Assembly (NCBI GenBank): GCA_000092065.1
Contig: CP000585.1
Strand: one strand, 5' to 3'
Length of the DNA stretch: 64,000 bases
DNA from: Ostreococcus lucimarinus
Taxonomy: Eukaryota
A model generated the notes under the pieces. That model was given only the letters and a program-made list of their open reading frames with translations. It was not told the DNA's origin and searched no databases. Shown here piece by piece: positions 12,177 to 51,535 of this stretch; positions within the stretch are counted from its first letter, which is position 1, and every line of letters begins with the position of its first letter. A program made the position numbers and the translations under genes.

Positions 12177-13476
12177 ATGACGACGACGATCGACGCGTCC
12201 AAGCAACTGACGCGGGAAAAGTCCGCGGCGATGGTGACGAACATGCTGCGCGTGGCGCTGCACACGGTGACGTTTTGTCGAGGTGCGCACGAATCGACGA
12301 AACGCGAGACGACGAGGCGCGCGCGCGCGGACGACGACTGACGGCGGCGAGGACGAGAGGGCAGGGATATTCGACGCGGAGACGCACTTTAAGGAGTGTA
12401 AGAACATGAACGTGTCGATGCATAAGCTGGTGCCGGCGAGTAAGGGGGCGAAACGAATCTTGGACATGCTCGAGCGAGGCGTGGCGGACGCGCTGGAGCG
12501 GGGATATTTGAGGAGCGTGTCGTTCGCGCTGACGCGAGCGGTGGTGAAGGATGGAGTGAAGGATGCGACGATGCGGGAGACGGTGGAGGAGTATAAGTTT
12601 AACGTGCGCTATGGGAGCCGAGGCGAGGTGACGCTCGACGACGCGCGGTACATCGGCGGCGGCGATCGAGGCGACGTGAGCGTGGGGCTGAGCGATCGCA
12701 CGGGCAAGACGACGCGCATGGAACGATTGAGCGATGTGGATTACATTAAGAAGGCGGCAATCGCCATGACGCGCTGTTTGCTGTCGCTCGTGAAGACGTT
12801 GGAGAACGTTCCCGACGGGTGCGCGTTTAACATTCACGTTTCGTACGTCAACGGTACGCCGGCGGATTACGAGCCACCGTTCTTTGAGGCGGCGGACGCG
12901 ACGAGAGAAACGACTTGGTCGAAGAACCCGTTCAGTATGAGTGTTGGAAAAGTGGAAACCGAGTATCACGGGCTGTCGCTTCGCGTGCGTTCGGTGTTGG
13001 ATCCCGCTCAAGACACCGACAGCGGACAAAAGAGCAATCCCGGATCGTCGCAAACTTCTTCTTTGCTCGATGAGTCACCTTCGACGCCTGTCGGCGACAA
13101 AACGGCCGCTGACGACGCCATCGTTCCCATGTCGCAAGACGTTGTGGTGAATCTGTCACAACCGAAGGCGGAAGCCGCACCGACGTTCGACGACGGCGAA
13201 GTCGAAGCGCAAGTACTCGATTGGGTGAAAACGCGACGGAGCTCGGGCATCGTCGACGCCGTGGCGTGCTCCAATACATTCCGAGCGTACCCGTTCAAGG
13301 TGATAGATCGTGCGTTCGAGCGCTTGCTTGCCAAGGGGCTGGTTGAAAAGAACGGGGATCGAGGTTTTGTCTTGTCGTCAGCGCCAAAGACGAATGGTAA
13401 GAAGCGATCCGCGTCGACGAAGGCTATCGCGCCGCAGGCTACTCGTCGCTGCTTACGCTCGAATACGCGAAAATAA
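12177..13476 (+). CDS. HORMA-domain protein (Mad2/Rev7/Hop1 superfamily) with C-terminal winged-helix-like region, 2 exons (12177..12282, 12365..13476)
   Basis: Exon1 MTTTIDASKQLTREKSAAMVTNMLRVALHTVTFCR + exon2 GIFDAETHF... aligns with Mad2 N-terminus [33 protein letters not shown]; intron GTGCGC...CGACTGAC...GGGCAG. Confidence 0.55.
12283..12364 (+). other. intron (82 nt) of HORMA gene
   Basis: GTGCGCACG donor, CGACTGACGG branch, CAG acceptor at 12362-12364; phase-1 splice creates RG-IFD motif. Confidence 0.55.
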
Positions 13477-16665: not shown

Positions 16666-18063
16666 TTAGAAGCCAAACGAACCGCCGAAGCCTGTCGCGC
16701 CACCCCACATGCTTTGCGGCTGGCCTTGCGCCTGTTGCCCAACACTTTCGGGCTGCGGAGCGGCGGCGGGAGAGAAAAGCGAGTAGCCCAGGCCGACACC
16801 AAACGGAGACCGACCGCCGAGAGCGTCGTACGCTCCAACGTTGCTATAGACGTCCTCGGCGAGACCTTCCATGCCCATGCCGCTCACGCCCCACGCCGCT
16901 CCAAGCTGCGAGCTTCCATCCGCTGCAGCCACGCCCCCGTTCGGCCGCGCGTTTCTATCCCAAGCGTTCGCGTGCGGCGCCGATTTCTCGGGCGTCGCGA
17001 CGCCGAAACCGCCGGGTTGAGAAAATCCGAAACCCGGCGCCACAGGTTGAGCGCGTTGATTCGCCTCCGGCGGTGGGCCCGCGGGTACGGGAGGAACGAA
17101 GCCTTCACCGACATTCGGCATACGGCTCGGCGCTTCCGCTCCCGCACCGAACGCAAACTCAGGCTTCGGGTACTTTGGGTACGTCTTCGGCGACGACGCG
17201 TTCCCAAAGCTTATCGCATTCGGCGAATCGTCCGCGGCTTGATCGCTAGCTAACATCGAACCAGTACCGAACTGAAACGTAGGTCCACCCATCACCGCCG
17301 GCTTTGCGCCGTTAGCGCCCGCTACGGGCGCCGCGGACGCACCGTTCGGTGTCGGGAAGCGTGGCGTCGGCACCGACGCCCCGCTCGTCGTGAGCGTCGG
17401 CGACTTCTCCAAAGCCGCCACCGCGGGCATCGGTGCCGTGGGTAACGGTGGATCCAAGCTCGCCTTTCTTCCGACCAACGCCGCCGCGAACGAGCCTTCA
17501 GTCGCGACGGTCACTCCAGCTTTGGCGGCGGACGCGTAGTCTATCGCCCCGCTTCGCTGCGCGATCGGCGCCGGCGTCGGCTCCTTCGCCATCGTCACCG
17601 GTCTCGCCACCGCGTTCAGCCCTCCCGCTATCGGCAGCGGCTTCGGAATGCTCACCCCACCTACTCTACCGTTCGTCGGCGATCCCGTCGGCGACCCGCT
17701 CGCCGAGGCGATTTTCGCGAACGCCGCCACCGCGGCGACGTCGTGAGAAAACCGACACTGATCCCCCCGCTTACACGTCCCTTTCGCGTGATCGAAGCAC
17801 ACGCCCGCCGCCGCTCTGTGCGGCGACCCCACGCCGCGTCCCATCACCCCCCCCGCCGCGGGATTCCCTCCCGCTTCGCCCTCGTGCGAAAACCGACAGT
17901 CGGCGCGCGCGCACGATCCCCGCGACCAATCGAAGCACGCGTCCGACCGCTCGAACGACCCGTTCCGCGCCAGTCCGCCCGTCCCGGACGTCGGCGACAT
18001 CCGTCCCATCTCCAGCGCGCGTTTCGCGCGCTCTCGCGCCGCGCGCTGCGCCTCCGGCGTCAT
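16666..18063 (-). CDS. CCCH zinc-finger / FG-repeat protein, Nup42 (NUPL2/hCG1)-like nucleoporin
   Basis: Two C-x8-C-x5-C-x3-H fingers (CFDWSRGSCARADCRFSHEG; CFDHAKGTCKRGDQCRFSHD) followed by long low-complexity region ending in FG repeats (GFGFSQPGGFG, FGGSFGF). Confidence 0.45.
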   Translation of the reverse strand: MTPEAQRAARERAKRALEMGRMSPTSGTGGLARNGSFERSDACFDWSRGSCARADCRFSHEGEAGGNPAAGGVMGRGVGSPHRAAAGVCFDHAKGTCKRGDQCRFSHDVAAVAAFAKIASASGSPTGSPTNGRVGGVSIPKPLPIAGGLNAVARPVTMAKEPTPAPIAQRSGAIDYASAAKAGVTVATEGSFAAALVGRKASLDPPLPTAPMPAVAALEKSPTLTTSGASVPTPRFPTPNGASAAPVAGANGAKPAVMGGPTFQFGTGSMLASDQAADDSPNAISFGNASSPKTYPKYPKPEFAFGAGAEAPSRMPNVGEGFVPPVPAGPPPEANQRAQPVAPGFGFSQPGGFGVATPEKSAPHANAWDRNARPNGGVAAADGSSQLGAAWGVSGMGMEGLAEDVYSNVGAYDALGGRSPFGVGLGYSLFSPAAAPQPESVGQQAQGQPQSMWGGATGFGGSFGF

Positions 18064-18452: not shown

Positions 18453-20222
18453 ATGCGGCGCGCGCTGGCGCGGCGCGGATACGCCGACGCGAAACCGCTG
18501 AAGCGCGGCGCGACGGGACGCGTGTACGAGGCGACGCGGCGCGACGACGGCGCGCGGTGCGCGCTGAAGATGCTGGCGACGCGCGACGCGCGCGACGAAG
18601 ACGCGACGACGGCGACGACGCGCGAGGCGGACGCGCTGCGACGGTGCGGAGGACACGCGAACGTGATCGCGCTGCGCGAGGCGTGGATCGACGACGCGCG
18701 CGGCGTCGGGTGGATCGCGATGGAGCACGGCGGAGGAGACTTGACGACGCGCGCGGCGACGGCGGCGCGCGCGGCGAATTACGCGGCGCAGATCGGGATG
18801 GCGCTGCGACACGTGCACGAGAGGTGCGGGATGGTGCACGGGGACGTGAAACCGGAGAATGTGCTCGTGGACGAGGATGGGATGGTGAGACTGGGGGATT
18901 TCGGGAGCGCGCGCGCGCGGAGCGACGAAGACGGGCGGGCGCGGGCGGGAGGCACGCCGTTGTACGCGCCGCCGGAGGTGTGCTCGGGCGAAGGGCGCGC
19001 GTGCTCGACGGCGGGAGACATGTGGGGGTTGGGGTGCGTCATGTACCAGCTCGCCGCGGGCGCGCCGCCGTTCGACGGCGGTGATAAGGAAACGCTTCGA
19101 AGGAACATCGTCGAGACGGAGCCTCCGGCGCTCGAGGGGGAGTTCGCCGGAGAGTACGACGATGTCGTGCGGGCTTTGCTCGTCAAGGACCCGGCGCGGC
19201 GTTTGACCGCGGAGCAGTTTCTGTCTTTGCCGTACATGCGGGAGCGCGTGTCGCGGATTTTAGAAACTTCGAGGAACCATCGCGAGCGAGCTTCCGGGGC
19301 GGTTGAGTTCGATGCGGATGCCGACGCCGATGCCCTGAATTCAAACGCGACGGTGGCCACATTCGGCGACGCTGACTCGCTCGTCGAGCGCTTGGCCGCG
19401 CTTGAGGCGAAGAACGAAGTGTTGACGATGAAGCTCGAGGCGTCCGAGCGGGCAAGACGCGAACTGTGCGAAAAACTCGAACGCGCCATGTTTCGCGTGA
19501 AACACGACGAAATGAAGTCCCAAGCGAGTCCTTCGACGAGTTATGCAGACGGCACGCCCACGTCAGCAGCGACGGCTGTTCCTCGATGCGCGCACACGAT
19601 GTCTTTCATGGACTCGCCGTTTATCATGTCGAGCAGCGCCGAGCGCATGATTTCCAGCCATCGTTGGTTTGAAGACTCATTCCATTTGGCCCCGATATCG
19701 CCCATCGCGGCGAACGTGAACGGTGCACGTCGAGATGCCATGCATGCTGTGACTCCGGTGCAAAGAAAACACGATTTGGTGTCCTTGTTTGAAAAGGCGG
19801 AGATTTCGCCAGCGGGACCGCTAGATTTCAAATCGTCGCCAGGCGCGAACGATTCGAGCGTCATGAGCTCGCCACCAACGTCGGCGTCCAAATCACGCGA
19901 CGAGTACATCGATAGTCTCTTGCGCCGTGCGCGTAAGTCTCGCACCGCCGAGGCGAAAACTGACGACGCATCGTCGATGTCCGACGACGCCGAAAACGAC
20001 CCGCCGTCGCCTCGATCTGAAGACGCCCTCCCCATCTTCGAGAGCGATCTCGCGACTCCACCAACGGTGTCGCGCCGTCCAAAGACTCCGATGGCGCCGC
20101 TCCGTCATCAAAACCACCGTCACGACGACGACGACGTACACGGTGACATCGCGCTCGGGCGTTCGATTAAACACGGCGTCGCTCGCGAGCGATGGAACGT
20201 TCGCCCGCGAGCGCTTTTTTGA
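18453..20222 (+). CDS. serine/threonine protein kinase
   Basis: GxGxxG-like LKRGATGRVYEA, VAIK-like CALKML, HGDVKPENVL (catalytic loop), DFG (LGDFGSARA), APE-like YAPPEV; long low-complexity C-terminal tail. Confidence 0.8.
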   Translation: MRRALARRGYADAKPLKRGATGRVYEATRRDDGARCALKMLATRDARDEDATTATTREADALRRCGGHANVIALREAWIDDARGVGWIAMEHGGGDLTTRAATAARAANYAAQIGMALRHVHERCGMVHGDVKPENVLVDEDGMVRLGDFGSARARSDEDGRARAGGTPLYAPPEVCSGEGRACSTAGDMWGLGCVMYQLAAGAPPFDGGDKETLRRNIVETEPPALEGEFAGEYDDVVRALLVKDPARRLTAEQFLSLPYMRERVSRILETSRNHRERASGAVEFDADADADALNSNATVATFGDADSLVERLAALEAKNEVLTMKLEASERARRELCEKLERAMFRVKHDEMKSQASPSTSYADGTPTSAATAVPRCAHTMSFMDSPFIMSSSAERMISSHRWFEDSFHLAPISPIAANVNGARRDAMHAVTPVQRKHDLVSLFEKAEISPAGPLDFKSSPGANDSSVMSSPPTSASKSRDEYIDSLLRRARKSRTAEAKTDDASSMSDDAENDPPSPRSEDALPIFESDLATPPTVSRRPKTPMAPLRHQNHRHDDDDVHGDIALGRSIKHGVARERWNVRPRALF

Positions 20223-28389: not shown

Positions 28390-29793
28390 ATGGCGACGCG
28401 CGACGGCGCGAGCGCGCGCGCGACGTCGCGCGCGACGAGCGCGACGTCGCGCGCGACGACGGAGTTCTGGCTGACGATCCCGCGCGCGACGCGACGCCCC
28501 GACCCGACGCGCGCGGGCAGGGAGACGATCTTCTACGACGTCGCGTGCGCGCTCCACGGCGATCGCGGCGACGGCGCGAACGCGCGCGGACGAGACGCGG
28601 CGCGCGTCGAACGCGTCACGCGACGGCGGTACCGCGAGTTCGTGGCGCTGAAGGAAGATTTGGATGAGGAGTGCGGCCGCGGGGCGGCGCCGGAGGCGCC
28701 GCCGCGAGAACGGTTTCGTCGAGTGAACGCGGACGAGGGTAAGGTGGAGGCGCGAAGACGGCGGTTGGAGAGTTGGTTGTGGGGGGTGCTGGCGAACGAG
28801 GCGTGCGCGAAGAGCGAGGCTTTGGGACGGTTCGTACGGTTGGGGGCGTGCGAGCGGGCGCTGCGGCGCGCCGAGGCGGCGGCGGCGGCGGAGGCGGTCG
28901 AGGCGAACGCGGAGGGGGGAGAGATCGCGATGACGCCGGAGTCGACGTCGGTGCGCAAGATGGACGCAGTGACGCCGGAGATGGTGACGAATCCGAGCGC
29001 GATTCTGTCGTCGCCCGAGAGCGAGGCGAGTCCGTATGAGCCGCGGCGGCGAGCGATCGAGGAGAGCGAAGCGGCGGCAGCCACCGCCGTTGATGCGCTG
29101 AATGCGACAAATGAAGAGATGCGGTCTCTCAGGGAAGAGCTCGAGGCGACGAGGGAGTGCTTGAAGGATGCGCGCGCGACCGCGGCGGCGGCGGAGGAAA
29201 AGTTTTCCGATTTCGAAGTCACATCGCGGAAGGAAAAGAAAGTGTTGAGCAAGGAGATTCGCTCGCTGCGGCGCCAGCTCGAAGCAGCGAAGTTGGATAA
29301 AAACGAACAGGCAAACATCATATCCGCGGAAGATCGCACGGCGGTGCTGCGAGACGTCATGCACGAGGTGAGCGTGTTGCGCAATCGAGTTCAAGAGTGT
29401 ACGTATGAGAAATTACTGTCCGTGGAAGCGAGTAGCCCGCACGGACACGCAGGTGGAGATCCGAACGAGCTGCTTGCTGTGAGCGATAACCGATTGGCCG
29501 TGTTGCTCGCCGAGACGCAGATTATGATATTAGGCGGCGAGGACGCTCAGCCCTCGATTTCGGATTCCCCAGAGAGCGCCGAGGCAGAACAAGAGCTCCT
29601 GAACGCCGAGCGCGAGACCCGACAGACGTTCGCAGACTTGCTGTCGGATCTCATCAACACGCGCAAGAGTATCAATTCGCTCTTACGCAAACACTTTGCG
29701 AGAAAGAACGAACCGGCTTCGACGACAGGACTTAGCAGTCGCGTGACGAATCTCGTGGGCGCGATAGAAAAGAAACTGACCATTCCTCAATAG
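28390..29793 (+). CDS. PX-domain protein (sorting-nexin-like) with coiled-coil C-terminus
   Basis: PX-like RRRYREFVALKEDL...PPRERF...RRRRLESWLWGVL followed by long coiled-coil (EE/LR heptads). Confidence 0.55.
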   Translation: MATRDGASARATSRATSATSRATTEFWLTIPRATRRPDPTRAGRETIFYDVACALHGDRGDGANARGRDAARVERVTRRRYREFVALKEDLDEECGRGAAPEAPPRERFRRVNADEGKVEARRRRLESWLWGVLANEACAKSEALGRFVRLGACERALRRAEAAAAAEAVEANAEGGEIAMTPESTSVRKMDAVTPEMVTNPSAILSSPESEASPYEPRRRAIEESEAAAATAVDALNATNEEMRSLREELEATRECLKDARATAAAAEEKFSDFEVTSRKEKKVLSKEIRSLRRQLEAAKLDKNEQANIISAEDRTAVLRDVMHEVSVLRNRVQECTYEKLLSVEASSPHGHAGGDPNELLAVSDNRLAVLLAETQIMILGGEDAQPSISDSPESAEAEQELLNAERETRQTFADLLSDLINTRKSINSLLRKHFARKNEPASTTGLSSRVTNLVGAIEKKLTIPQ

Positions 29794-29857: not shown

Positions 29858-31579
29858 TCACAGACCGGTTTGCTGCATTTTCTTCCCTTGCGCGTCGAAG
29901 ACGTACTTCTTGAATCGCAACGTGAGCTTTCCGTTCCCTGCACCTTTCTTGATGCCGTTCGAAAAGTAAACCTTGTACTTGCCGCTCTTCCCGAAACCGC
30001 CCTCTATTGTGCCGCACTCTTGATTCGACGTCCACACGCGCATGCCCAAGAACGCAGTCAGGTCGGATTCTTTTTTAAACATGCCTTTGCCGATGACGGT
30101 GCGCTCATCTTGCACGCGTTCGATCGCACCCTCGCGAGATTTCATTTTGAACACGCGAAGCGAACGAATCGCGTCTGGTTCGCGCTGCGTGTTAATGTGC
30201 TGAAGCATTCTCCCGTGAAACGCGAGTCGACACGTGTTTTGATGGATGTCGGTGTCGAGACGCGACGCGATGTACAGCTCGTCCGTCGGCACCGTAATCG
30301 GTTGCTCAAACTCCAACAGCGCATACTTCGCGAACGTCGGAGCGTCGAACGCGTCGACGCCCCCAGCCTCATCGACGATCGCCCTAGCCTCAGTTTCGGT
30401 CAAAAGCTCCTCGCAGTGCTTGTACTCCTTGGACGCGTCAAAGCCAACTTCGGTCAACTGCATACTCGCCAAAGCATCCGAGAGAGCGTTTTCACCACCT
30501 CGTGAGACGTCGCCGAAGAAATGAACCGTCGCCATCACCGTCGTGTGCCCGATCGTGATGTGAAACTTTGCGCCGCATTTCACAGCGCTCTTGAAAAACC
30601 GAATTTTACTCGCGCTCACGATGGCCGCGTCGAATGTGGGCACCGTGTTCGGTTCGCACACTAAACCGCGCTCGAGGACTTTCGCATCCAACCCCGCGAC
30701 GCAAATCCCCAATCGATCGCCGCGCGCGCACGAATCGACTGACTTCTTGAACATCTGCATGGACTTGATCTTCTTCTCAAGTTTCAGATGCGGAATCTCA
30801 ATCGTATCCCCCACGGCGACGGAGCCCCGAAGCGTCGTCCCCGTGAGCACCGTCCCTTGCCCTTTCACCGGAAAGCAGTGATCGACGGCGAACAAAAACG
30901 CTCCTTCCGCTTCGCGCTTCTTCTTCACCTCCGGTATTAACTCCAACAGCTTCGTTTTCAGCGCCTCGATCCCGATCGGTGGGTCCCCGCCCGAGTCCAG
31001 CGCCTGCGAATCCGCCCCGCCCGGCCTCGCGCTCACCGGCAACATCGCGCATCCCTTAAACTTTGTCTTCGCGAACACGCTCGCCAATTTCGCCTGCATC
31101 TTCGCCACCTTTTCCTCTCTCACCTCCTCCGCGAACGCATCGATCTTATTCACCGCCACGATCAGTCTATCCGTCGTTATTTCCCCCACCACCAAGCACT
31201 CCGCCGTCTGCGTCTGCACGCCCTTTTGCGCGTCCACGACCAAAATCATCAAATCGATGATCGACGCCCCCCCCAGGACCGTCTTTATCAGCGACGCGTG
31301 TCCCGGGCAATCCACCAGCGTGAACTGCGCGCCGTCGTACGCCTCGCGCGTCGCGTCGTCGACGTCATCAGGAAACTCGGCGAGAAACGACGAAAATCCA
31401 AGGTCGAGCGTGATGCCCCGCGCCGCGCTCTGCGGGCACTTATCCAGGCTCGCCGTGCTGAACGCCGTGCTGATCGCGCGCGCGAGCGACGTCTTCCCGC
31501 TGTCGATGTGCCCGAGGACGCCGACGTTGACGTTCAGTCGAGGTTTCATTGCGCCGCGCGCGACGCGCTCTGATGCCAT
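29858..31579 (-). CDS. selenocysteine-specific elongation factor (eEFSec/SelB)
   Basis: GTP-binding G1-G4 motifs (VLGHIDSGKTSL, DCPGH, NKID), EF-Tu-like domains plus C-terminal extension typical of eEFSec. Confidence 0.8.
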   Translation of the reverse strand: MASERVARGAMKPRLNVNVGVLGHIDSGKTSLARAISTAFSTASLDKCPQSAARGITLDLGFSSFLAEFPDDVDDATREAYDGAQFTLVDCPGHASLIKTVLGGASIIDLMILVVDAQKGVQTQTAECLVVGEITTDRLIVAVNKIDAFAEEVREEKVAKMQAKLASVFAKTKFKGCAMLPVSARPGGADSQALDSGGDPPIGIEALKTKLLELIPEVKKKREAEGAFLFAVDHCFPVKGQGTVLTGTTLRGSVAVGDTIEIPHLKLEKKIKSMQMFKKSVDSCARGDRLGICVAGLDAKVLERGLVCEPNTVPTFDAAIVSASKIRFFKSAVKCGAKFHITIGHTTVMATVHFFGDVSRGGENALSDALASMQLTEVGFDASKEYKHCEELLTETEARAIVDEAGGVDAFDAPTFAKYALLEFEQPITVPTDELYIASRLDTDIHQNTCRLAFHGRMLQHINTQREPDAIRSLRVFKMKSREGAIERVQDERTVIGKGMFKKESDLTAFLGMRVWTSNQECGTIEGGFGKSGKYKVYFSNGIKKGAGNGKLTLRFKKYVFDAQGKKMQQTGL

Positions 31580-32146: not shown

Positions 32147-34480
32147 TTAGACGGAGTAAGTCTTCGAGCCGTCCTGGCGAACGTCGCCGCGCAGAACGAG
32201 CTCGGCGATGTCCTCGCACGAGCCGAGGAAGAGCGGCGAGCGCTCGTGAAGCGTCGTCGGTTTCTTGTCGAGTATGGTTTCGACGCCGTTTGTCGCTTCG
32301 TCCGAGCAACGAATGCCATCAGAAGATGCCGCACCGGCGGCGCGAGCGACGAAGGCGAGTGGAGCCGCTTCGAAGACAACGCGAAGGTGCGGTCGCGGGT
32401 TGCCACACCATCCGCCGTAAATCAGCGTTCGGTGCGCATCCCCGACGAGCGAACAGATGTATCGCGCGCTGTACTGAGAGCCGCTCTCGCCTCGACCGTT
32501 ACGAATATCATTAATGTACGACTTCAAGCCTTCGGGCCAGTCATCAAATCTGGCGTCGTTGAGCGAGTACACTTGACCTCTGGGAGGGCACGACATACGT
32601 TTGTTTGCCACGGCGAATTCGCCGTCAAACAACGTGTACTCGACCGCTGGACCTTCATCGCCGCACGCAAGAACTAACGTTGTCGCGCCGCTATAGTGCG
32701 CGTATCCAGCGGCGACTTGCTCGCGCCCTGGTTGCACGGCGTTCTCTTCGGCAGAAGCTCCCTCGATAGCGCGATATACGCCGAAGATTGACCCCACTGG
32801 AACATTGCAGGCAATGTTTCGCGAGCCATCGAGCGGATCAATGCACACGACGTAACCACCGTCGACATTCAACACAACAGGCGTGTCATCTTCCTCGCTA
32901 GCGTAGTACTTGACACCTCCACACTCCGTAAGGTGCCTTTTAAAGATGTCATTCGCCACGACGTCGAGCTTTTGCTGCGAATCGCCGGAAGCGTTACTTC
33001 CACCTGCGGCGCCGAGAAGTTCGCTGCCTCGCAAAGGCGCGCTCGCTAAAGCACTTGCGAGCTCTTTACTTGCGTTCGCCAGGGCGACGAGGACTTTACT
33101 CAGCATCAAGCGTTCTGTGGGCGAGCTATCGCGACCGGCGAAAGATTCGCATTCATGAATTTGTGAACCGACGGCGAACTGTCTTGCCGGATTGGAGTTC
33201 CATTGGACAACGCCGTACTTACCGGTGACCATCCAGCTTTCTTCCTTCTTGGCCATTTCTTGACGTTCACGAGAAATACCGCACCCCAGCTCAGCTTTCA
33301 ACGTACGCAAAGCTAATAGTGGTGCGGGAAAATACGCCGAGACGTCTTCGAAAGGCGTGTCCAGCTCCCACAAACAATCATTAAGAAGCCGCCGATAGTT
33401 CGCGTCTCCCTTGATGATGACGAGATCTGAAGACTTCAAGTCATCGTGAGCTTTCCGCGGGAGCGCCCATAACGGTTGTGGCTGGCACCATGCAAAGTCC
33501 GGTGTGATCGCCCACGCGCCACTACTGAGATGCGCCGCCCATCGACGGCCCATGACAGCCGTGTCCTCGTCCTCGCTCTTCATCATCGCGTCGATGGTAT
33601 CTCTGCAATCCTTGTCCATCGCATCCGACACAAAGACAGGGTGCGCCTTGACGCGAAGGATTACTCGTTGCACAGCACCGCTGGTGATCAGCGCATCCGC
33701 GAGTGCGAGGTCGCTCACAAGCTCGAAGCCGGCGTTGTCAACGACGATCGACACGTCACGCATGCCCTTCGCGAGCGCTGTGGACACCCGTTCGCTATCG
33801 TCCCACAGAAGGTACTCTTCACCAGCGTGTAGCGCTTCGACAAATGCCTCGCTTGCGCGATTCGATCCATCGCCATCCGATCCAGACTCAGGCCATATAC
33901 TCAGATCCATTCGGTTTCCCCAAAGTGCCACCATAACAAAGAGTCGAAGTTCTTCGGCGAGCGTCGACGCAGTCTTGGCTCGTTTTGAGAAAGAGTTGGC
34001 CTTCTTCGCCAGAGACGCCGCTGCCTGCGCGCCTGCACGCAGGCCATTCATTTTATCTACCGAGAACGGGTCGAAGTTAAAGAGCTTGGACTCTGAATCG
34101 AAGTAACCGATGGCGTTCAGGATGCGTCGATAAAAGTAAAACTCGACCAGAAGCCAAGGCGCGTCTAACCACGTCGTTCCAATCCACGGATCAAGGATTT
34201 CGCGCCACGTCTCGATATCAGGACCACCATCCGGTGTGATGTGTTCGATGACACTCGTCGACGCCGTGGAGAGCTCAGCCTCGAGTCTACGTAGTTTAAT
34301 CTCTGCGTCGCTCCCGGGCGTGAGTACAGTGGCATTGTCCCTGAAAACTCTTCCAAGAATGTCTTCACGAAGACGGCGATTCACAGTGTCGTACGACCAC
34401 GTTCCCGGGACGTTGTTCACGATCACGGGTGGCGTGGAACCGTCCCAAGTGCGCGGGCCCGCTGCGGCGCCATTATCCAT
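32147..34480 (-). CDS. fusion protein: N-terminal DUF89/ARMT1-type metal-dependent sugar-phosphate phosphatase + C-terminal fructose-1,6-bisphosphatase-like domain
   Basis: N-terminal half: VVDNAGFELVSDLALAD..., IIKGDANYRRL (DUF89 hallmarks). C-terminal half: FBPase motifs VCIDPLDGSRNI, VGSIFGVYR, ICSLVGDAHRTLIYGGWCGNP. ORF open to 34606 but that is 12 bp from upstream gene stop; internal Met (MDNGAAAG, 34480) chosen. Confidence 0.65.
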   Translation of the reverse strand: MDNGAAAGPRTWDGSTPPVIVNNVPGTWSYDTVNRRLREDILGRVFRDNATVLTPGSDAEIKLRRLEAELSTASTSVIEHITPDGGPDIETWREILDPWIGTTWLDAPWLLVEFYFYRRILNAIGYFDSESKLFNFDPFSVDKMNGLRAGAQAAASLAKKANSFSKRAKTASTLAEELRLFVMVALWGNRMDLSIWPESGSDGDGSNRASEAFVEALHAGEEYLLWDDSERVSTALAKGMRDVSIVVDNAGFELVSDLALADALITSGAVQRVILRVKAHPVFVSDAMDKDCRDTIDAMMKSEDEDTAVMGRRWAAHLSSGAWAITPDFAWCQPQPLWALPRKAHDDLKSSDLVIIKGDANYRRLLNDCLWELDTPFEDVSAYFPAPLLALRTLKAELGCGISRERQEMAKKEESWMVTGKYGVVQWNSNPARQFAVGSQIHECESFAGRDSSPTERLMLSKVLVALANASKELASALASAPLRGSELLGAAGGSNASGDSQQKLDVVANDIFKRHLTECGGVKYYASEEDDTPVVLNVDGGYVVCIDPLDGSRNIACNVPVGSIFGVYRAIEGASAEENAVQPGREQVAAGYAHYSGATTLVLACGDEGPAVEYTLFDGEFAVANKRMSCPPRGQVYSLNDARFDDWPEGLKSYINDIRNGRGESGSQYSARYICSLVGDAHRTLIYGGWCGNPRPHLRVVFEAAPLAFVARAAGAASSDGIRCSDEATNGVETILDKKPTTLHERSPLFLGSCEDIAELVLRGDVRQDGSKTYSV

Positions 34481-34618
34481 CCGTCCCGCTCGTCTTCGCA
34501 GAGACGCTCGACTCTCCCTGAGCATCGACGACGACGTGCGACGCGACGAAGGAGACGCCGTTGATGCCGTCGACGCGCGCTCGTGCGCGCTCAGTGCTGC
34601 GCGCATCTTTGTAGCGCG

Positions 34619-36427
34619 TCACTCACCACTCTCGCGCATGGCGACAAAGCGCGCTAAAAAAGACTCCAGAATGAAAACTCGATAGGCGAGCAATTCGCTA
34701 AACTCGTCGTCTTCGAGGGATCGAATTTTCTCTAACATTATCTGCGCCAAGAACGGGTGAGACTTGAAGATTTCTTCGATGGCCGATGCGCGCGCGCGCC
34801 AGAGTTCGCACACGGTGAGCGCCGAAGCGCGGACTGATTTTCTTCGTTCGGGTGGAATGAGTTCGTCCAATCCAAAGTAGCACAAGTACGCATCGGCTTG
34901 CCCAGTGAGAACAGCGATCATTTTGCGCTCGTTGGGACTTGAAATTGCCACGACTCCTTCGGTGACGACGTAAAAGTAACCAGAATCTATGACCATTCCA
35001 GGCTCGATGACGACTAGCTCGAATACACTCACGATGTGCTGACAAAGGCCGTTCGAGACGTTCCCGAATATTCGACCAACGTTCGGCGCGAGCATGTGGT
35101 GCGCCATGGACGCCATTAAATCAGTCGGCAATGACTTCATGATTTCTTCGTTTTCTCGTAGGAACGTGCGCCGTGGCTCGACTTCTGAAATGAACGACAT
35201 GATGTGCCTCCTGATGTGCGTCGGTGCGTGTTGCCGATCGAGAAATGCGTGCACACGCGTCACGCGTTCTCGAAATTTGCGCTGTCGCGACATCGTTGTT
35301 GAAAGTGCCTGAATCGATGCTCCCATGCTCCCAACGAGATAGGCGAAGAAGATCGCGCCCACGATCATCGCTACGGTCGATATGCAACGCTCGAGGTCAT
35401 TCGATCCCGCAGAGATGTCGCCAAAACCGACGGTCGTGATCGTGGCAGTGGCAAAATATAGTGCAACGATGTAGATTTCGGAGTTTGACCCATCTGCCAA
35501 GTCCGCCTGCGTGAGCCAGCTTTGATTACGGCCTTCCTGAATCGCAACGAAGATGTAGACGCACGCCACAGAATGGACCAAAAGCGCAAACACGAGCAGC
35601 GTCTGCGCGATGAATATCACCATCGGAGTCATACGAAACAGCTTCATGAACAAAATCTCCGGCGTCGTCAACGATGAACCAGTCACTCGAAGAACTCGCA
35701 AAAGACGTAGAATTCTCGTTAGGCGTTCCACCGGTGTGGATTCGCCTTTAATCGAGGCGATTATTTGCACGACAAACGGGACGCTCACTATCACGTCCGT
35801 GACAAATGAACCTTCAAGGATGTATATCTTACGGATGAGTCTGGGAGTCGTGATGAGCTTCCGTCGCCCCGTGGAGCGACACGTCAAAACTTTGGCTTCT
35901 AAGAAGTTGACCACAAACGTATCGATGAAGAAGAGCGCTCCTGCGACGAAATCGATAATCGGCGCAGCACTCAACCCTCTCCCTTTGAGCTTCATCGGGT
36001 AATCAAACGCTATGACAAACGGTTCAATGACAGACATCATCACTGTTACCGCCACGATGATCACGTTCCAAGCAAGCTGAAATCGCGACGACGGGAGAAA
36101 AAGAGATTCCCACCGTGGCCGACGATGCCGCGTTCTTCGCGCGTCCTCTTTCACGTACGCGTAGAACCTACTCGAATTCACCAACACGCCGTGTTTATAC
36201 GATTCTCGCACAAGTGTAGACTCGAGATCATCTTCTTCTATCACGAAACCTTCGATATCTTCCTCTTGCTCAAGACATTGTGACAACGGCGTGGCTCTGC
36301 GCTCTACGACTCCTGGTCCACCGTGCGCAAGCCTTATCGCAGCAGAGATGGCTGTGCCGCCCCAAGGTAAACGATCGCGCGTGCGATCAGAGGATAGCAG
36401 TGCTTGCTCGAGCGATCGGAATGACAT
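34619..36427 (-). CDS. cyclic-nucleotide-binding-domain K+ channel
   Basis: Six-TM voltage-sensor-like region with R-spaced S4 (RILRLLRVLRV), pore TTVGFGDI (K+ selectivity GFGD), C-terminal cNMP-binding fold. Lower GC. Confidence 0.7.
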   Translation of the reverse strand: MSFRSLEQALLSSDRTRDRLPWGGTAISAAIRLAHGGPGVVERRATPLSQCLEQEEDIEGFVIEEDDLESTLVRESYKHGVLVNSSRFYAYVKEDARRTRHRRPRWESLFLPSSRFQLAWNVIIVAVTVMMSVIEPFVIAFDYPMKLKGRGLSAAPIIDFVAGALFFIDTFVVNFLEAKVLTCRSTGRRKLITTPRLIRKIYILEGSFVTDVIVSVPFVVQIIASIKGESTPVERLTRILRLLRVLRVTGSSLTTPEILFMKLFRMTPMVIFIAQTLLVFALLVHSVACVYIFVAIQEGRNQSWLTQADLADGSNSEIYIVALYFATATITTVGFGDISAGSNDLERCISTVAMIVGAIFFAYLVGSMGASIQALSTTMSRQRKFRERVTRVHAFLDRQHAPTHIRRHIMSFISEVEPRRTFLRENEEIMKSLPTDLMASMAHHMLAPNVGRIFGNVSNGLCQHIVSVFELVVIEPGMVIDSGYFYVVTEGVVAISSPNERKMIAVLTGQADAYLCYFGLDELIPPERRKSVRASALTVCELWRARASAIEEIFKSHPFLAQIMLEKIRSLEDDEFSELLAYRVFILESFLARFVAMRESGE

Positions 36428-47113: not shown

Positions 47114-48454
47114 CTATTTTTTCGCGTCGCGTTTCGCGCGAAACGCCTCGCGAAGCAGACTAATTTTTTCGTCCGTCACAGGATTACTCTCCACGGCGGA
47201 CTCGTTTTGAAGGAACAACACGCTCGTGTCGCTCGTCGCTAATCGATATCGAGATTTCTTCCGATGCTGCGCTCCTTCGTAATAACCATGCTCGCGAACC
47301 GATATCACTTCGGCGCGAGAGCAAAACTTTGAGCGTCTCATCTTTTCCCAACACGGGCGATTGGGCCAATGCGGGGTGACGACGACAAAAGTCAGCGCGG
47401 AAGACGCTGCGTCCAAGCACTCGAACAAATGTTCAGCCATGCGCGCGACGACGTCTTCGTCGAACGGAGGATTGGCTTCGAACGCGCCTCCTGAGGGCTT
47501 GCATGCGCGAAAGTCCCCCAGCGACCCGAAGGGCTTGTCCACGTCACCGTATTTGCTGTAATACATGGGCCAGCGACAGTTCAACGGCGAGGCGAAGAGC
47601 TCGCACTCGACTTTAAAGCAGTCACGCAGCACGTCGAAAACTTGCCCGTGTAACGAAGCTTGAGAACCACCGGAAAAACGAAACTGCCCGCCAGCCGCCG
47701 CGTCGTACCGACACACCATCGCGAACGCGTCGAACAGGAAATCATTTTCGACAAACTCTTTGGACGACGCATTCGCGTAAAGCGTTTTCAATTTCTCAAA
47801 GTGATCACCGTTCAACCGCACCTCGGTCTTTCCTACGCGCAGCGAAACGACGCCGTCGGCGCGTTCCTCCTTCGACACCGACGTCGCCGGTCCGCGAAAC
47901 TCATTTCTCATCACGCGCGCGCACTCCGTGGCTTTCATCATCATAACGCGCACGACCGCGTCGACTGCCTCATCGCTCGCGTCTTTCTTCTTCGCCCGTA
48001 ACTTCTTCGCCAACGCGTCGCCGCCGCCGTCTCCCGCCGGCACCAGCGGTTCGTCCTCCGACGCCGACGCCAACCACTCCTCGAACGCCGAGCACCACCG
48101 CTTGCCCAAATGCGGTCCCGCGACCCTCTCAAAGTCCATGCACAGGTGCGAGATCGCCCGCAATCGACACGCCTCGATCGCCGCGCGCGTCGCGCGTTCG
48201 TCGCTCGAGCTCGTCGCCTTCGCCGCGCGCTCGCGTCGCGCCCTCGCGCGCGCTTCGTCGACGTGCGCCGCGTCGAGCAACCCCTCGCGATAGTCGACGA
48301 CGACGCCGTCGTCGCGCGCCGTCGTCGCGGTCCTCGCGCGCTTCCGCGCGTCGTCGTCGTCGCGTCGTCCCTCGTCGCGCGCGCGTCGTCCGACCGGCGC
48401 CTTCGCGTCGTCGCCGCCGCGCGCGCGCGCGCGCATCGCCGCCCAGTTCGACAT
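47114..48454 (-). CDS. PCIF1/CAPAM-like mRNA cap N6-adenosine methyltransferase
   Basis: C-terminal domain with catalytic NPPF motif (GGAFEANPPFDEDVV) in helical/MTase-like context typical of PCIF1; start set at MSNWAAM. Confidence 0.55.
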   Translation of the reverse strand: MSNWAAMRARARGGDDAKAPVGRRARDEGRRDDDDARKRARTATTARDDGVVVDYREGLLDAAHVDEARARARRERAAKATSSSDERATRAAIEACRLRAISHLCMDFERVAGPHLGKRWCSAFEEWLASASEDEPLVPAGDGGGDALAKKLRAKKKDASDEAVDAVVRVMMMKATECARVMRNEFRGPATSVSKEERADGVVSLRVGKTEVRLNGDHFEKLKTLYANASSKEFVENDFLFDAFAMVCRYDAAAGGQFRFSGGSQASLHGQVFDVLRDCFKVECELFASPLNCRWPMYYSKYGDVDKPFGSLGDFRACKPSGGAFEANPPFDEDVVARMAEHLFECLDAASSALTFVVVTPHWPNRPCWEKMRRSKFCSRAEVISVREHGYYEGAQHRKKSRYRLATSDTSVLFLQNESAVESNPVTDEKISLLREAFRAKRDAKK

Positions 48455-48578
48455 CGCGCGCGCGGACGCCTCGCGCGCGCGTCGTCGACGCGCGTCGCGC
48501 GCGCGCGTCGCGCGCGGCGCCGCGATGTCCCGGCGACGTTCCGCGTCGGGCGCGCGCCGCCGCACACGACGACGACGC

Positions 48579-49304
48579 ATGGCGCGCGCGGCGACGACGC
48601 CGACGCGCGCGACGACGCCGACGCCGACGCGCGGCGTCGCGCGACCGCGACGCGGCGACGCGCGCGCGCGACCGCGACGCGCGACGCGCGCGAGCGCGAA
48701 AAAGCGAAAAGGTTTCGCCGAACTCTTGGGCGGCGCGGCGAGCGACGACGGAGACGCGCGAGCGGAGCGCGCGGGCGCGACGACGAGCGCGAAGGGAAAA
48801 GCGGCGCGGAGCGCGGAGGCGCGATGCCCGTGCGGGGGAGGGCGCGATGGGCTGACGTACGCGAGCTGTTGCAAGAGGTTTCACGACGGCGACGCGTACC
48901 CGGAGGATCCGGTGACGCTGATGCGCACGCGGTTTAGCGCGTACGCCAAGGGAAAAGGACTTTATGTGGTGAAAACAACGCATCCGGATAACCCGCTGCT
49001 GATGGAGGGGGCGAAGACGAAGACGGGGAAGGTGGTGAGCACGCTGGCGCGAGACGTCGAGGCGACGTGTAAAAAGGTTCGGTTTTACGACTTGGACATC
49101 GTGCGCGACGTCAAGGGCAAGGGTAAGGGCGACGCGCGCGAGCATTTGGTTGGGTTTCGTTACAAGTGTCGGGTCGTCGGGCAACAGGGGTTCAACGAGC
49201 TTCCCGAGGAGAAACACGCGGAGCTCTCGACGTTTCGCACGACGAGGGACGACGACGGGAACGAGGTGTGGAAATTCGTCGACGGAATCCAAGGATCGAC
49301 TTAG
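48579..49304 (+). CDS. YchJ/UPF0225-family SEC-C motif protein, organelle-targeted
   Basis: CPCGGGRDGLTYASCCKRFHDG...LMRTRFSAYAKG matches YchJ N-terminal SEC-C metal-binding motif; NTF2-like remainder. Confidence 0.55.
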   Translation: MARAATTPTRATTPTPTRGVARPRRGDARARPRRATRASAKKRKGFAELLGGAASDDGDARAERAGATTSAKGKAARSAEARCPCGGGRDGLTYASCCKRFHDGDAYPEDPVTLMRTRFSAYAKGKGLYVVKTTHPDNPLLMEGAKTKTGKVVSTLARDVEATCKKVRFYDLDIVRDVKGKGKGDAREHLVGFRYKCRVVGQQGFNELPEEKHAELSTFRTTRDDDGNEVWKFVDGIQGST

Positions 49305-49439
49305 TACTTTTCTCGATTGTATTTGAATATTTGATTTTTGTTCCACCGCGTGTTCGCGTCCGACGTTTGAGGGCTCTCGGTTGGGCGTCGTCTCGTCCCG
49401 GCGGCGTCGCGGATAACCTTCACAGTCACGCTCGCGTCG

Positions 49440-50057
49440 ATGCCCGCGCTGACTTCGACCGCGCGCGCGGCCACGCACGCGTTCGCCACGCATCGCGGCG
49501 TCAACTCCCGTCGCAATCCGCGCTCGATGCAAGCCGTTCGCGCCTTCTTCGGCGGCGCCGCCACGTCATCAAAGTCCGCGCACGAGTTCACCGTGAAAGA
49601 CATCGACGGCAAGGACGTCTCGATGTCCAAGTACGCCGGAAAGGTGTGCCTCGTCGTGAACGTCGCCTCCGAGTGAGGCTTGACGGACCAAAACTACAAG
49701 GAGCTCGTCGCGCTGGACGCGAAGTACGCCAACCTTGAAGTTTTGGCTTTCCCGTCGAACGAGTTCGGCGGACAAGAACCGGGAAGCGCGGCGCAGATCA
49801 AGGCGTTCGCTCGGGAAAAGTACGGGGCAAAGTTCCCGCTGTTCGAAAAGACCACGGTAAACGGTGCGAGTGCGAGCCCGTTGTACAAGCATTTGAAGGA
49901 ATCCGCGCCCGAGTCTGGTTTGCTCGCGATGGCTGGTTCAGAAATCAAGTGGAACTTTGCCAAGTTTTTGCTCGATAAGGACGGCAAGACGATCGCGCGT
50001 TACGCGCCGACGTCTAGCCCTTTTAGTATCGAGGGGGACATCATCAAGGCGCTTTAA
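49440..50057 (+). CDS. GPX: glutathione peroxidase, selenocysteine-containing (in-frame TGA at 49674..49676 read as Sec)
   Basis: ORFs 49440..49676 and 49680..50057 are same frame, separated only by TGA in NVASE-U-GLT, exactly the GPX redox-centre position; downstream WNF(A/T)KFL and FPxNEFG... motifs conserved. Confidence 0.8.
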
Positions 50058-50104
50058 TACGTCATACTGTCACGACAAAGACAGTCGCAACAGCGCAAGA
50101 TTTG

Positions 50105-50174
50105 CCGCGGAGAGGTGACGCTTCATCCAATAAATCGACGTCTGTCGAGGGGATGGGCCGAGTTAACATCCGCG
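50105..50174 (+). promoter_or_regulatory. candidate SECIS element in GPX 3'UTR
   Basis: CCGCGG(50105-10)/CCGCG(50170-74) helix I; UGAC (50116-19) opposite cGA (50159-61); helix II gcuucaucc/ggaugggc (8/9 pairs incl. GU); unpaired AA (50129-30) followed by mini-stem ucgac-gucug-ucga (type II). Confidence 0.5.
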
Positions 50175-50257
50175 TCGTTTCGCTCGCGCTAACATTCTTT
50201 TACATTCTCTGAACACAGTAATACAATCTACGCTATGCGGCTGCGCAATGCTCTAAA

Positions 50258-51535
50258 CTATTCTAAAAAATCGGCGACGTATTCTGCCACCGCGAGGCTC
50301 GACGTCAAGCCGGGTGACTCAAAGCCAAACAGATGCACCAAACCAACCGCACCGTGCTGACTTTCAGTTTGAAATACAAAGTCAGTCGTCGCGCCGGGCT
50401 CATCAGTGTCACCTGCTTCGTTGATGAGCTTAGGTCGGATACCCGTGAACGCCGGTCGAAGCGCGCCGTCTTGCAAACCAGGCCAGTACTCGCGAATCGC
50501 CTCGTAAAACGAACGCACGCGCGCTGGGTTCATCGTGTAATCGATGTCGTCTATCCATTCAATGTCAGGACCAAACTTGCACTTGTCGTAAACATCGCGA
50601 GTGAAGTGCACACCCAGACCTCCTTCTCTCGGCAAAGGATACACGAGCCGCTGAAAAGGCGCCGAGTAGCCTTTTTTCAGCTCACAATACATCCCTCGCG
50701 CGAAATACAAAGGCGGTGGCGGCGTCACGGAGATGTCGTAAACATCTAACAACCGATCGCACAACCGGTGTGCGTATAGCCCGGCGGCGTTCACTAAGCG
50801 CGGCGTAGAAATTACGCGACGCGACTTTGTCTTCACCTGAAACGTTTTGCTCAGCCCGCGCGTGATCTCAACCACTTCATCCCCGAGCGCCACCGTTGTT
50901 CGCCCATCTCGCACGCAATCGCGACGAAACGACTCCATGAGCTCTTGAACGTCGACGATACTCGTCGAAGGCGACAAAACCCCAGCGTAACCTCGCACAT
51001 TTTTCTCGTACGCCGTGAGTTGCTCCGACGTGAGCAACGCCAAGTCGTCGACGTCGTTCATCTGCGCTCTCGTAATCATCGCCTCGAGCGCGTCCATCTG
51101 ACTCTCATCCCGCGCGACGATGAGTTTACCTATGTTTTCCCACTTTACATCTTTCTTCTCACAGTATTTCACAATCTTTCGCCGCCCTTCGACGCAAAAC
51201 TTTGCCTTCGCGCTTCCCGGGACGTAATGCATCCCCGCGTGTAACACCTCCGAGTTCTTTGAGCTCGTCTCCGCGCCGATGCTCTCCGCTTTATCGATGA
51301 CGCACACGCGCATACCACGCAAAGACAAGGCGCGCGCGCACGCCAGTCCGATGACACCGGCTCCGACGACGACGGCGTCGTAGCGTTCATCAGCGTCAAA
51401 GCCGCGAAGGGCGCCCGGACGGAACGTCGTCGCGCGCGCTGTGCGGGCGCGCCCGTGCGGTAGCGCGCGCGCGCGTGACGTCAATACATCACGAGACACG
51501 CGTTGCGCATCGTGGACCCGCATGTAGGGCGTCAA
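50258..51535 (-). CDS. L-2-hydroxyglutarate dehydrogenase-like FAD-dependent oxidoreductase, mitochondrial
   Basis: FAD-binding DAVVVGAGVIGLACARAL...; L2HGDH-family blocks SKNSEVLHAGMHYVPGSAKAKFCVEG, GKLIVA; presequence. Confidence 0.7.
   Translation of the reverse strand: MTPYMRVHDAQRVSRDVLTSRARALPHGRARTARATTFRPGALRGFDADERYDAVVVGAGVIGLACARALSLRGMRVCVIDKAESIGAETSSKNSEVLHAGMHYVPGSAKAKFCVEGRRKIVKYCEKKDVKWENIGKLIVARDESQMDALEAMITRAQMNDVDDLALLTSEQLTAYEKNVRGYAGVLSPSTSIVDVQELMESFRRDCVRDGRTTVALGDEVVEITRGLSKTFQVKTKSRRVISTPRLVNAAGLYAHRLCDRLLDVYDISVTPPPPLYFARGMYCELKKGYSAPFQRLVYPLPREGGLGVHFTRDVYDKCKFGPDIEWIDDIDYTMNPARVRSFYEAIREYWPGLQDGALRPAFTGIRPKLINEAGDTDEPGATTDFVFQTESQHGAVGLVHLFGFESPGLTSSLAVAEYVADFLE

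Follow-up and report, generated by a model that had tools for sequence, protein, structure and literature searches.

Organisation of the locus

The window, a stretch of 64,000 nucleotides of Ostreococcus lucimarinus DNA (contig CP000585.1 of assembly GCA_000092065.1), carries on its plus strand a candidate selenoprotein gene: a glutathione peroxidase (GPX) gene that contains an in-frame TGA and is followed by a putative selenocysteine (Sec) insertion sequence (SECIS) element in its 3' untranslated region (3' UTR). In the sequence and in the list of open reading frames (ORFs) this gene appears as two pieces on the plus strand, an ATG-initiated ORF of 78 amino acids (49440..49676) that ends with the TGA at 49674-49676, and an ORF of 125 amino acids called from a TTG (49680..50057), the two starts lying 240 nucleotides apart and thus in the same frame. 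Translation of 49440-50057 meets a single internal stop (KVCLVVNVASE-stop-GLTDQNYKELV) and ends at a TAA (50055-50057), giving a product of 205 codons. The initial annotation had described just such a split at the TGA with both halves in one frame, and sequence, ORF list and translation agree with it. The locus holds one intact gene, which has no intron and needs none. Its coding features are listed below, with the evidence for each in brackets.

49440..50057, plus strand: complete coding sequence of a GPX4-type glutathione peroxidase of 205 residues, with predicted Sec at residue 79 (single frame, Pfam GSHPx match, structural relatives)
49674..49676, plus strand: in-frame UGA, predicted to specify selenocysteine at residue 79, the peroxidatic position (invariance, alignment with Cys, selection on both sides)
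49440..49574, plus strand: extension of some 45 residues at the N-terminus, with a high content of Arg, Ala, Ser and Thr (lies ahead of the Pfam domain, which starts at residue 48)

For the Pfam search of the joined protein a Cys was placed at the stop position. The protein matches PF00255 (GSHPx) over profile positions 2-108 of 108, with an E value of 7.3e-36 and 122.5 bits against a cut-off of 27, and because this match spans the whole profile across the TGA, the two ORF halves are parts of one domain. The closest solved structures are those of the Schistosoma mansoni GPX (2v1m, E 9e-51) and human GPX4 (E about 1e-45), to which the protein aligns almost without gaps over some 160 residues.

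Metagenome catalogues annotate the locus differently, as two separate small genes encoding an N-terminal peptide of 78 amino acids and a C-terminal GPX-like protein of 125 amino acids that begins at the TTG at 49680. That two such genes exist is extremely improbable: the halves are in frame and only two codons apart, a single thioredoxin-fold GSHPx domain is aligned continuously from one to the other, and the C-terminal piece would be left without a peroxidatic residue. Moreover, an internal TTG start immediately after a stop codon is not expected in a eukaryote, and the 'start' TTG is itself the codon for the conserved Leu of the motif U-G-L-T.

Conservation of the UGA codon

Orthologues were gathered from the contigs of the nearest database proteins, which come from marine metagenomes and are all C-terminal halves of 124-127 amino acids starting MTDQNYKE. 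With a more distant relative, L014, the set comprises seven lineages: the window with its near-identical L013, L001-6, L007-9, L010, L011, L012 and L014 itself. Since the gene order of the window, PCIF1_WW (minus strand), YchJ-like (plus), GPX (plus) and DAO-type oxidase (minus), is kept on the relatives' contigs, the fetched loci are taken as orthologues. The TGA occupies the same codon in all seven lineages, down to 60% protein identity, and in the window with L013, L001-6, L007-9, L010, L011 and L012 a conserved N-terminal half precedes it; the MPALTS start of the window protein is kept in two other lineages. Beside the invariant TGA synonymous sites vary (GGC/GGT/GGA, CAA/CAG, AAG/AAA and GAG/GAA), and the residue just before it is E, Q, K or A.

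Measured against the window, the ratio of nonsynonymous to synonymous divergence (dN/dS) is 0.22-0.36 in the 33 codons upstream of the TGA and 0.12-0.18 downstream of it, at a synonymous divergence (dS) of 0.6-1.2, and purifying selection acts on both halves. With the TGA invariant, the neighbouring synonymous sites varying and both halves under selection, the locus behaves neither as a pseudogene nor as two independent genes would. On the reading as a pseudogene or truncated gene, the TGA is a nonsense mutation, with a fragment of 78 residues or nothing made and the downstream half decaying, and such a reading could draw on the behaviour of ORF callers, which stop at 49676 and call the remainder separately, and on the failure of Rfam to find a SECIS element, considered below. 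Conservation has effectively refuted it already, and it retains almost no probability: the same TGA persists in seven lineages at near-saturated synonymous divergence, dN/dS is lowest in the supposedly decaying half, where the catalytic residues are all retained, and a conserved SECIS lies downstream.

A further alternative is that the UGA is decoded as something other than Sec, either through near-cognate read-through with Cys or Trp or through an altered code in which UGA is a sense codon. One public gene call, for the protein P0073 of the AT-rich lineage L014 (60% identity), does write Trp at the homologous position, and the inserted residue is not identifiable from sequence alone. The Trp, however, is the choice of a gene caller, for the DNA reads TGA there. 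TGA is also the terminal stop of 9 of the 21 Pfam-supported neighbouring genes in the window, so the code is taken to be standard and the recoding specific to this gene. In addition, the position demands a redox-active residue (Cys or Sec), the gene has a SECIS of its own and the window an eEFSec gene, and selenoproteins are known from 75Se labelling to be made in O. tauri (PMC2375036). Decoding as a residue other than Sec is accordingly regarded as very unlikely.

A Sec redefinition element, in the form of a conserved stem-loop just 3' of the UGA, was not found in the orthologues; the folds of this region differ between lineages and its synonymous sites vary. The Leu codon two positions after the UGA (within window positions 49677-49685) is TTG in every lineage while adjacent synonymous sites vary and six codons are available for Leu, an invariance that could reflect a recoding context effect or plain codon bias.

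The SECIS element

Between the GPX stop codon and the convergent oxidase gene lies a 200-nucleotide spacer that holds one conserved block, the 3' UTR being otherwise unalignable. This block folds as a SECIS element with the parts given below, all on the plus strand.

50106..50174, plus strand: type II SECIS, 48 nucleotides after the stop codon and 440 nucleotides after the UGA (folds, conservation, covariance model)
50106..50111, plus strand: helix I, 5' strand, CGCGGA, paired with 50169-50174 (unconstrained and constrained folds)
50115..50119, plus strand: core, 5' side, G-UGA-C, with the UGA at 50116-50118 (GTGA invariant in all aligned orthologues)
50120..50128, plus strand: helix II, 5' strand, GCU-U-CAUCC, paired with 50151-50158, U50123 bulged (folds, compensatory changes)
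50129..50135, plus strand: A-rich internal loop, AAUAAAU (AAA at 50132-50134 unpaired, 13-15 nucleotides after the core UGA)
50136..50147, plus strand: apical mini-stem (helix III), CGAC/GUCG, 50136-50139 with 50144-50147, loop GUCU (folds; present in every lineage)
50151..50158, plus strand: helix II, 3' strand, GGAUGGGC (folds, pair changes)
50159..50162, plus strand: core, 3' side, C-GA-G, with the GA at 50160-50161 (lowest constrained energy among candidate GAs in every lineage)
50169..50174, plus strand: helix I, 3' strand, UCCGCG (unconstrained and constrained folds)

An unconstrained fold of 50095-50180 recovers helix I (50106-50111 with 50169-50174), helix II and the mini-stem. The parts are those of a type II element. 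Helix I is separated from the core by an internal loop; the core sets GUGA (50115-50118) opposite GA (50160-50161), in keeping with the general form (A/G)UGA; and helix II consists of 8 base pairs and one bulge, within the range of about 9-12 positions, before the unpaired A's are reached. The mini-stem has 4-5 base pairs in every lineage, which places the A's in an internal loop, and it is the presence of this mini-stem that assigns the SECIS to type II. Alignment positions A31, A33, A34, A35 and T36 are invariant and unpaired in all folds.

A canonical stem-loop about 45 nucleotides into the 3' UTR had been predicted in the initial annotation, and helix I does begin 48 nucleotides after the stop, the predicted end at 50174 being the last base of helix I. 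The canonical features that it named, the UGA/GA pairing partners, the unpaired A's, helices I and II and the mini-stem, are all present, with two qualifications: GUGA stands in the core where the textbook element has AUGA, and the Rfam models miss the element.

Sequences from six lineages were also folded one by one with the UGA and each candidate 3' GA held unpaired, and in each of the six the SECIS-compatible GA was lowest in energy and the same five-part architecture was recovered. Helix I differs in sequence between lineages and yet remains paired, as CUUCUCGG/CCGAGAGG in L001 and GGGAGAUUA/UGAUUUCU in L011. The pair 50125/50154 shows a compensatory change, A-U in three sequences and G-C in three; elsewhere in helix II C-G has become U-G in some sequences and U-A in L011, and in the mini-stem CG has become UA in one sequence (L007). 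In the model-fitted alignment 81% of cells pair, versus 34-50% when the partners are slid by one to three columns, and these counts are conservative, the alignment still mis-registering L001 and L011; the observed percentage was reached by none of 500 shuffles.

The most direct indication of a conserved element came from a covariance model built from L001, L007, L008, L010 and L011 alone, with the window left out. Searched against both strands of the window (128 kb), it gave one significant site, 50102-50177, with 49.2 bits and an E value of 4.7e-11, the next match having 13.9 bits. The match to the leave-out model, the conserved position and the conservation seen across lineages are together far beyond chance. 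The remaining covariance-model matches (12615-12661, 16917-17012, 35837-35866, 32233-32270 and 19985-20010, at most 14 bits) were rejected as chance. An RNAalifold analysis of a MAFFT alignment was likewise set aside, as it paired through the core and had L001 and L011 mis-registered by indels; a hand-specified SECIS structure was used instead.

In the distant L014 an AUGA-type element of the same build can be seen by eye in the 3' UTR (930-1015 of that locus), with helix I GUGUGC/GCACAC, AUGA...GA, AAA and a mini-stem UGCGA/UCGCA. The lineage-specific covariance model, R2, does not score it.

Catalytic residues and protein family

The initial annotation had placed the TGA at the redox centre of glutathione peroxidases and had proposed an alignment of the joined protein with GPX homologues. 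In that alignment UGA79 pairs with the peroxidatic Cys and the catalytic partners are kept: it stands opposite Cys in the homologues from Selaginella, Chara, Argentina and an algal transcriptome, and opposite the active-site Cys of a solved human GPX4 chain (tnvasqCglte), which is the engineered U46C substitution. A UGA opposite the Cys of homologues is typical of real selenoproteins. The other members of the catalytic tetrad are Gln112 (GGQEPG) and Trp171-Asn172 (KWNF), and the Gln, Trp and Asn columns are invariant. The locus combines the marks of a eukaryotic selenoprotein gene, namely a conserved UGA at a Cys position, coding conservation beyond the UGA and a SECIS in the 3' UTR.

The protein belongs with the monomeric GPX4/PHGPx-type subfamily, having no oligomerisation loop and GPX4-like structures as its nearest relatives. 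Where the Selaginella and Argentina homologues read FACTRYKAEFP, the window protein reads FAREKYGAKFP and is without the second Cys of the FACTR motif, which we take to be the resolving Cys of thioredoxin-dependent CysGPx enzymes; in this lack it resembles GPX4. Its sole other Cys lies in KVCLVV, and FPSNEF stands where GPX4 has FPCNQF. FPSNEF replaces FPCNQF in most lineages found, and one lineage keeps FPCNQF.

The N-terminal extension is kept in orthologues (MPALTS..., with the motif VRAFFGG), and among named homologues it is plant PHGPx proteins with long presequences, labelled 'chloroplastic', that come closest. By analogy with these the extension is probably an organelle-targeting presequence.

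eEFSec and the decoding machinery

The window also encodes a trans-acting function for the reading of UGA as Sec, outside the GPX locus.

29858..31579, minus strand: eEFSec gene, 573 amino acids (Pfam domains, name given by the Joint Genome Institute, JGI)

The ORF is complete and carries the domains expected of eEFSec: GTP_EFTU (3e-29), GTP_EFTU_D2 (3e-07), euk_SelB_III (1e-39) and eEFSec_4th (2.5e-25). JGI names an identical protein 'selenocysteine-specific elongation factor'. The eEFSec/SelB gene reported at these coordinates in the initial annotation, about 18 kb from GPX, was therefore correctly identified, and its intact state implies an organism able to read UGA as Sec.

The distance of about 18 kb might be thought to mark a functional, co-regulated selenium neighbourhood. 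Sec genes are not known to cluster in eukaryotes, and eEFSec and GPX are separated by some nine unrelated genes, which lie on both strands. Given 29 selenoprotein genes in a genome of 13.2 Mb (PMC2375036), our own arithmetic gives a probability of about 13% that a window of 64 kb holding eEFSec also includes a selenoprotein gene by chance. The proximity is probably chance, and there is very little likelihood that the two genes form a functional neighbourhood.

A model for UGA decoding and enzyme function

Taken together, these findings make it highly probable that the locus is an intact green-picoalga gene of the GPX4/PHGPx type in which, we infer from sequence, UGA79 is read as Sec by means of a type II SECIS in the 3' UTR. 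Translation would begin at the AUG at 49440. The SECIS kink-turn at 50106-50174, with its GUGA/GA core, would be bound by SBP2, which would recruit eEFSec, GTP and Sec-tRNA(Sec) to a ribosome paused at UGA79; Sec would be inserted in place of termination, and translation would run on to the UAA at 50055. The enzyme would then reduce hydroperoxides through a selenol/selenenic acid cycle with Gln112, Trp171 and Asn172. As it lacks a resolving Cys, recycling by an external thiol is proposed, with glutathione or another such thiol probably serving as it does for GPX4. For what binds the SECIS, which residue is inserted, what reduces the enzyme and where in the cell it acts, this scheme draws on established knowledge of the pathway.

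Several observations weigh against this reading. No gene for tRNA(Sec), SBP2, PSTK, SepSecS or SPS lies within the 64-kb window, where ARAGORN finds no tRNA at all; Mamiellophyceae are known to encode the full Sec machinery (PMC6627142). The fold energy of the element is ordinary for its composition (z = -1.63). A loose SECIS pattern finds 3 sites in the window versus 1.4 expected in shuffled sequence, and because this count is near chance the motif by itself proves nothing. The covariation comes from 6-7 distinct sequences and includes 4 pairs with double changes, a count met by 37 of 500 shuffles; with seven sequences, two of them imperfectly registered, it is supportive and not decisive. 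Finally, the Rfam SECIS families give no match at E values up to 10 in 49000-50700, in 50090-50190 or in five orthologous loci, the scan returning chance-level snoRNA and sRNA matches only.

The Rfam result is read as a limit on the sensitivity of the models for this lineage and not as absence of the element. Such a limit fits what has been published: Ostreococcus SECIS elements are atypical, having a long mini-stem and, ahead of the core, G instead of A (PMC2375036), and SECISearch3 misses some Mamiellophyceae SECIS elements (PMC6627142).

The two other sites found by the loose pattern, 29368-29410 (plus strand) in a PX-domain gene and 34581-34626 (minus strand) over the stop codon of an ion-channel gene, were rejected in view of the shuffle count.

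A broader proposal is more tentative, and we give it rather less than even weight: the orthologue group may represent a picoalga-specific, organelle-targeted, GPX4-like selenoenzyme, characterised by VRAFFGG, FPSNEF, the lack of a resolving Cys and a GUGA, long-mini-stem SECIS outside the curated models. If so, the selenoproteins of an abundant marine picoalgal lineage would be systematically under-called in metagenome catalogues.

Annotation of the orthologues and neighbouring genes

The warning in the initial annotation that ORF-based methods would miscall this gene is borne out by public catalogues, in which the gene is split. The exact C-terminal half of the window protein, of 125 amino acids, is stored as a separate protein on at least 793 marine metagenome contigs, and every public gene call retrieved for the orthologue group is wrong at the UGA, being either split, to leave a 'glutathione peroxidase-family protein' of 124-127 amino acids, or given Trp, as in P0073 of L014. 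With public calls splitting the gene and Rfam missing the SECIS, large protein catalogues carry wrong annotations for the selenoproteins of a picoeukaryote group among the most abundant in the ocean. These would be recovered by a SECIS model specific to the lineage, such as that built in this analysis.

On the 3' side of GPX lies a convergent gene for a DAO-family FAD oxidoreductase (50258-51535, minus strand), whose stop codon is 200 nucleotides from that of GPX. Because the stops are so close, the 3' UTRs of the two genes may overlap across the SECIS. The closest non-algal relatives of the oxidoreductase are bacterial, at about 45% identity, and many are labelled L-2-hydroxyglutarate oxidase LhgO by JGI. 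Antisense within this gene, at 50415-50462 (plus strand), is a SNORD101-like C/D-box match of 19.7 bits (gathering threshold 47, E 1.1) that also occurs in the near-identical L013 and is most likely due to chance.

On the 5' side, the GC content rises to 0.79-0.82 in 48200-48800, where the 5' ends of the divergent PCIF1_WW-like (minus strand) and YchJ-like (plus strand) genes meet. The mechanically called ORFs of these two genes overlap by about 350 nucleotides and have low-complexity N-termini rich in Arg and Ala, which leaves their true starts uncertain.

Elsewhere in the window, in an ORF of 819 amino acids (32147-34606, minus strand), an ARMT1-like damage-control phosphatase domain (residues 121-448, E 9e-58) is followed by a complete fructose-1,6-bisphosphatase (residues 501-803) with both its N- and C-terminal domains. 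This fusion is unusual if the ORF is one gene.

Comparison with known systems

The putative SECIS shares with the Rfam SECIS families (SECIS_1, RF00031, and related models) a helix I, a kink-turn core, a helix II, unpaired A's and an apical structure, whereas no model of these families scores it at E values up to 10.

Among proteins, the nearest named homologues are the PHGPx-like Cys-GPX enzymes of land plants and other streptophytes, such as poplar GPX5 (2p5q) and chloroplastic PHGPx1, with 50-62% identity. Like the window protein these are monomeric and GPX4-like, and many of the plant members have organellar presequences. They differ in carrying Cys where the window gene has UGA, and the window gene alone of the two needs a SECIS. 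Plant PHGPx-like enzymes are thioredoxin-dependent. The resolving Cys in FACTR is found in Selaginella and Argentina, in contrast to FAREKYG in the window protein, and the Chara homologue is likewise without it.

Human and other mammalian GPX4 (PDB 2obi, 7l8k) resembles the window protein in fold, in length, in the absence of a tetramerisation loop and in the motif NVAS-x-U-G-x-T; it shares the Gln, Trp and Asn catalytic partners, the lack of a resolving Cys and a type II SECIS in the 3' UTR. The two differ in the SECIS core, GUGA here and AUGA in mammals, and are about 50% identical as proteins. FPSNEF here contrasts with FPCNQF, the window protein has a 5-residue insertion around residues 157-166 (APESGLLAMAG), and the N-terminal presequence is a different one.

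The closest parallel is with the Sec-GPx genes of O. tauri and O. lucimarinus. In those hosts, likewise green picoalgae of the sea with compact, GC-rich genomes, UGA encodes a Sec at the GPX redox centre, as predicted here. Their 3' UTRs also hold a type II SECIS in which an unpaired G stands ahead of the UGA core and a mini-stem is present, and their genomes too encode eEFSec. The window itself fits Mamiellophyceae: its domains include PRONE and the Demeter RRM of the plant lineage, its layout is compact and largely free of introns, its GC content is about 55-60%, exactly matching sequences occur on hundreds of contigs from marine metagenomes, and the SECIS shape points the same way. Lobanov et al. 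(2007, PMC2375036) described 26 selenoprotein genes in O. tauri and 29 in O. lucimarinus, five of them in either species being GPx homologues, and all five proteins, GPx A-E, have been quantified in O. tauri proteomics (PMC8834552). The biological weight of the present gene is correspondingly small: for Ostreococcus and other Mamiellophyceae, Sec-GPx genes, SECIS elements of this unusual shape and the Sec machinery have been on record since 2007, with confirmation from labelling and proteomics. Nothing in the gene departs from the published Ostreococcus picture: it is of an already known kind.

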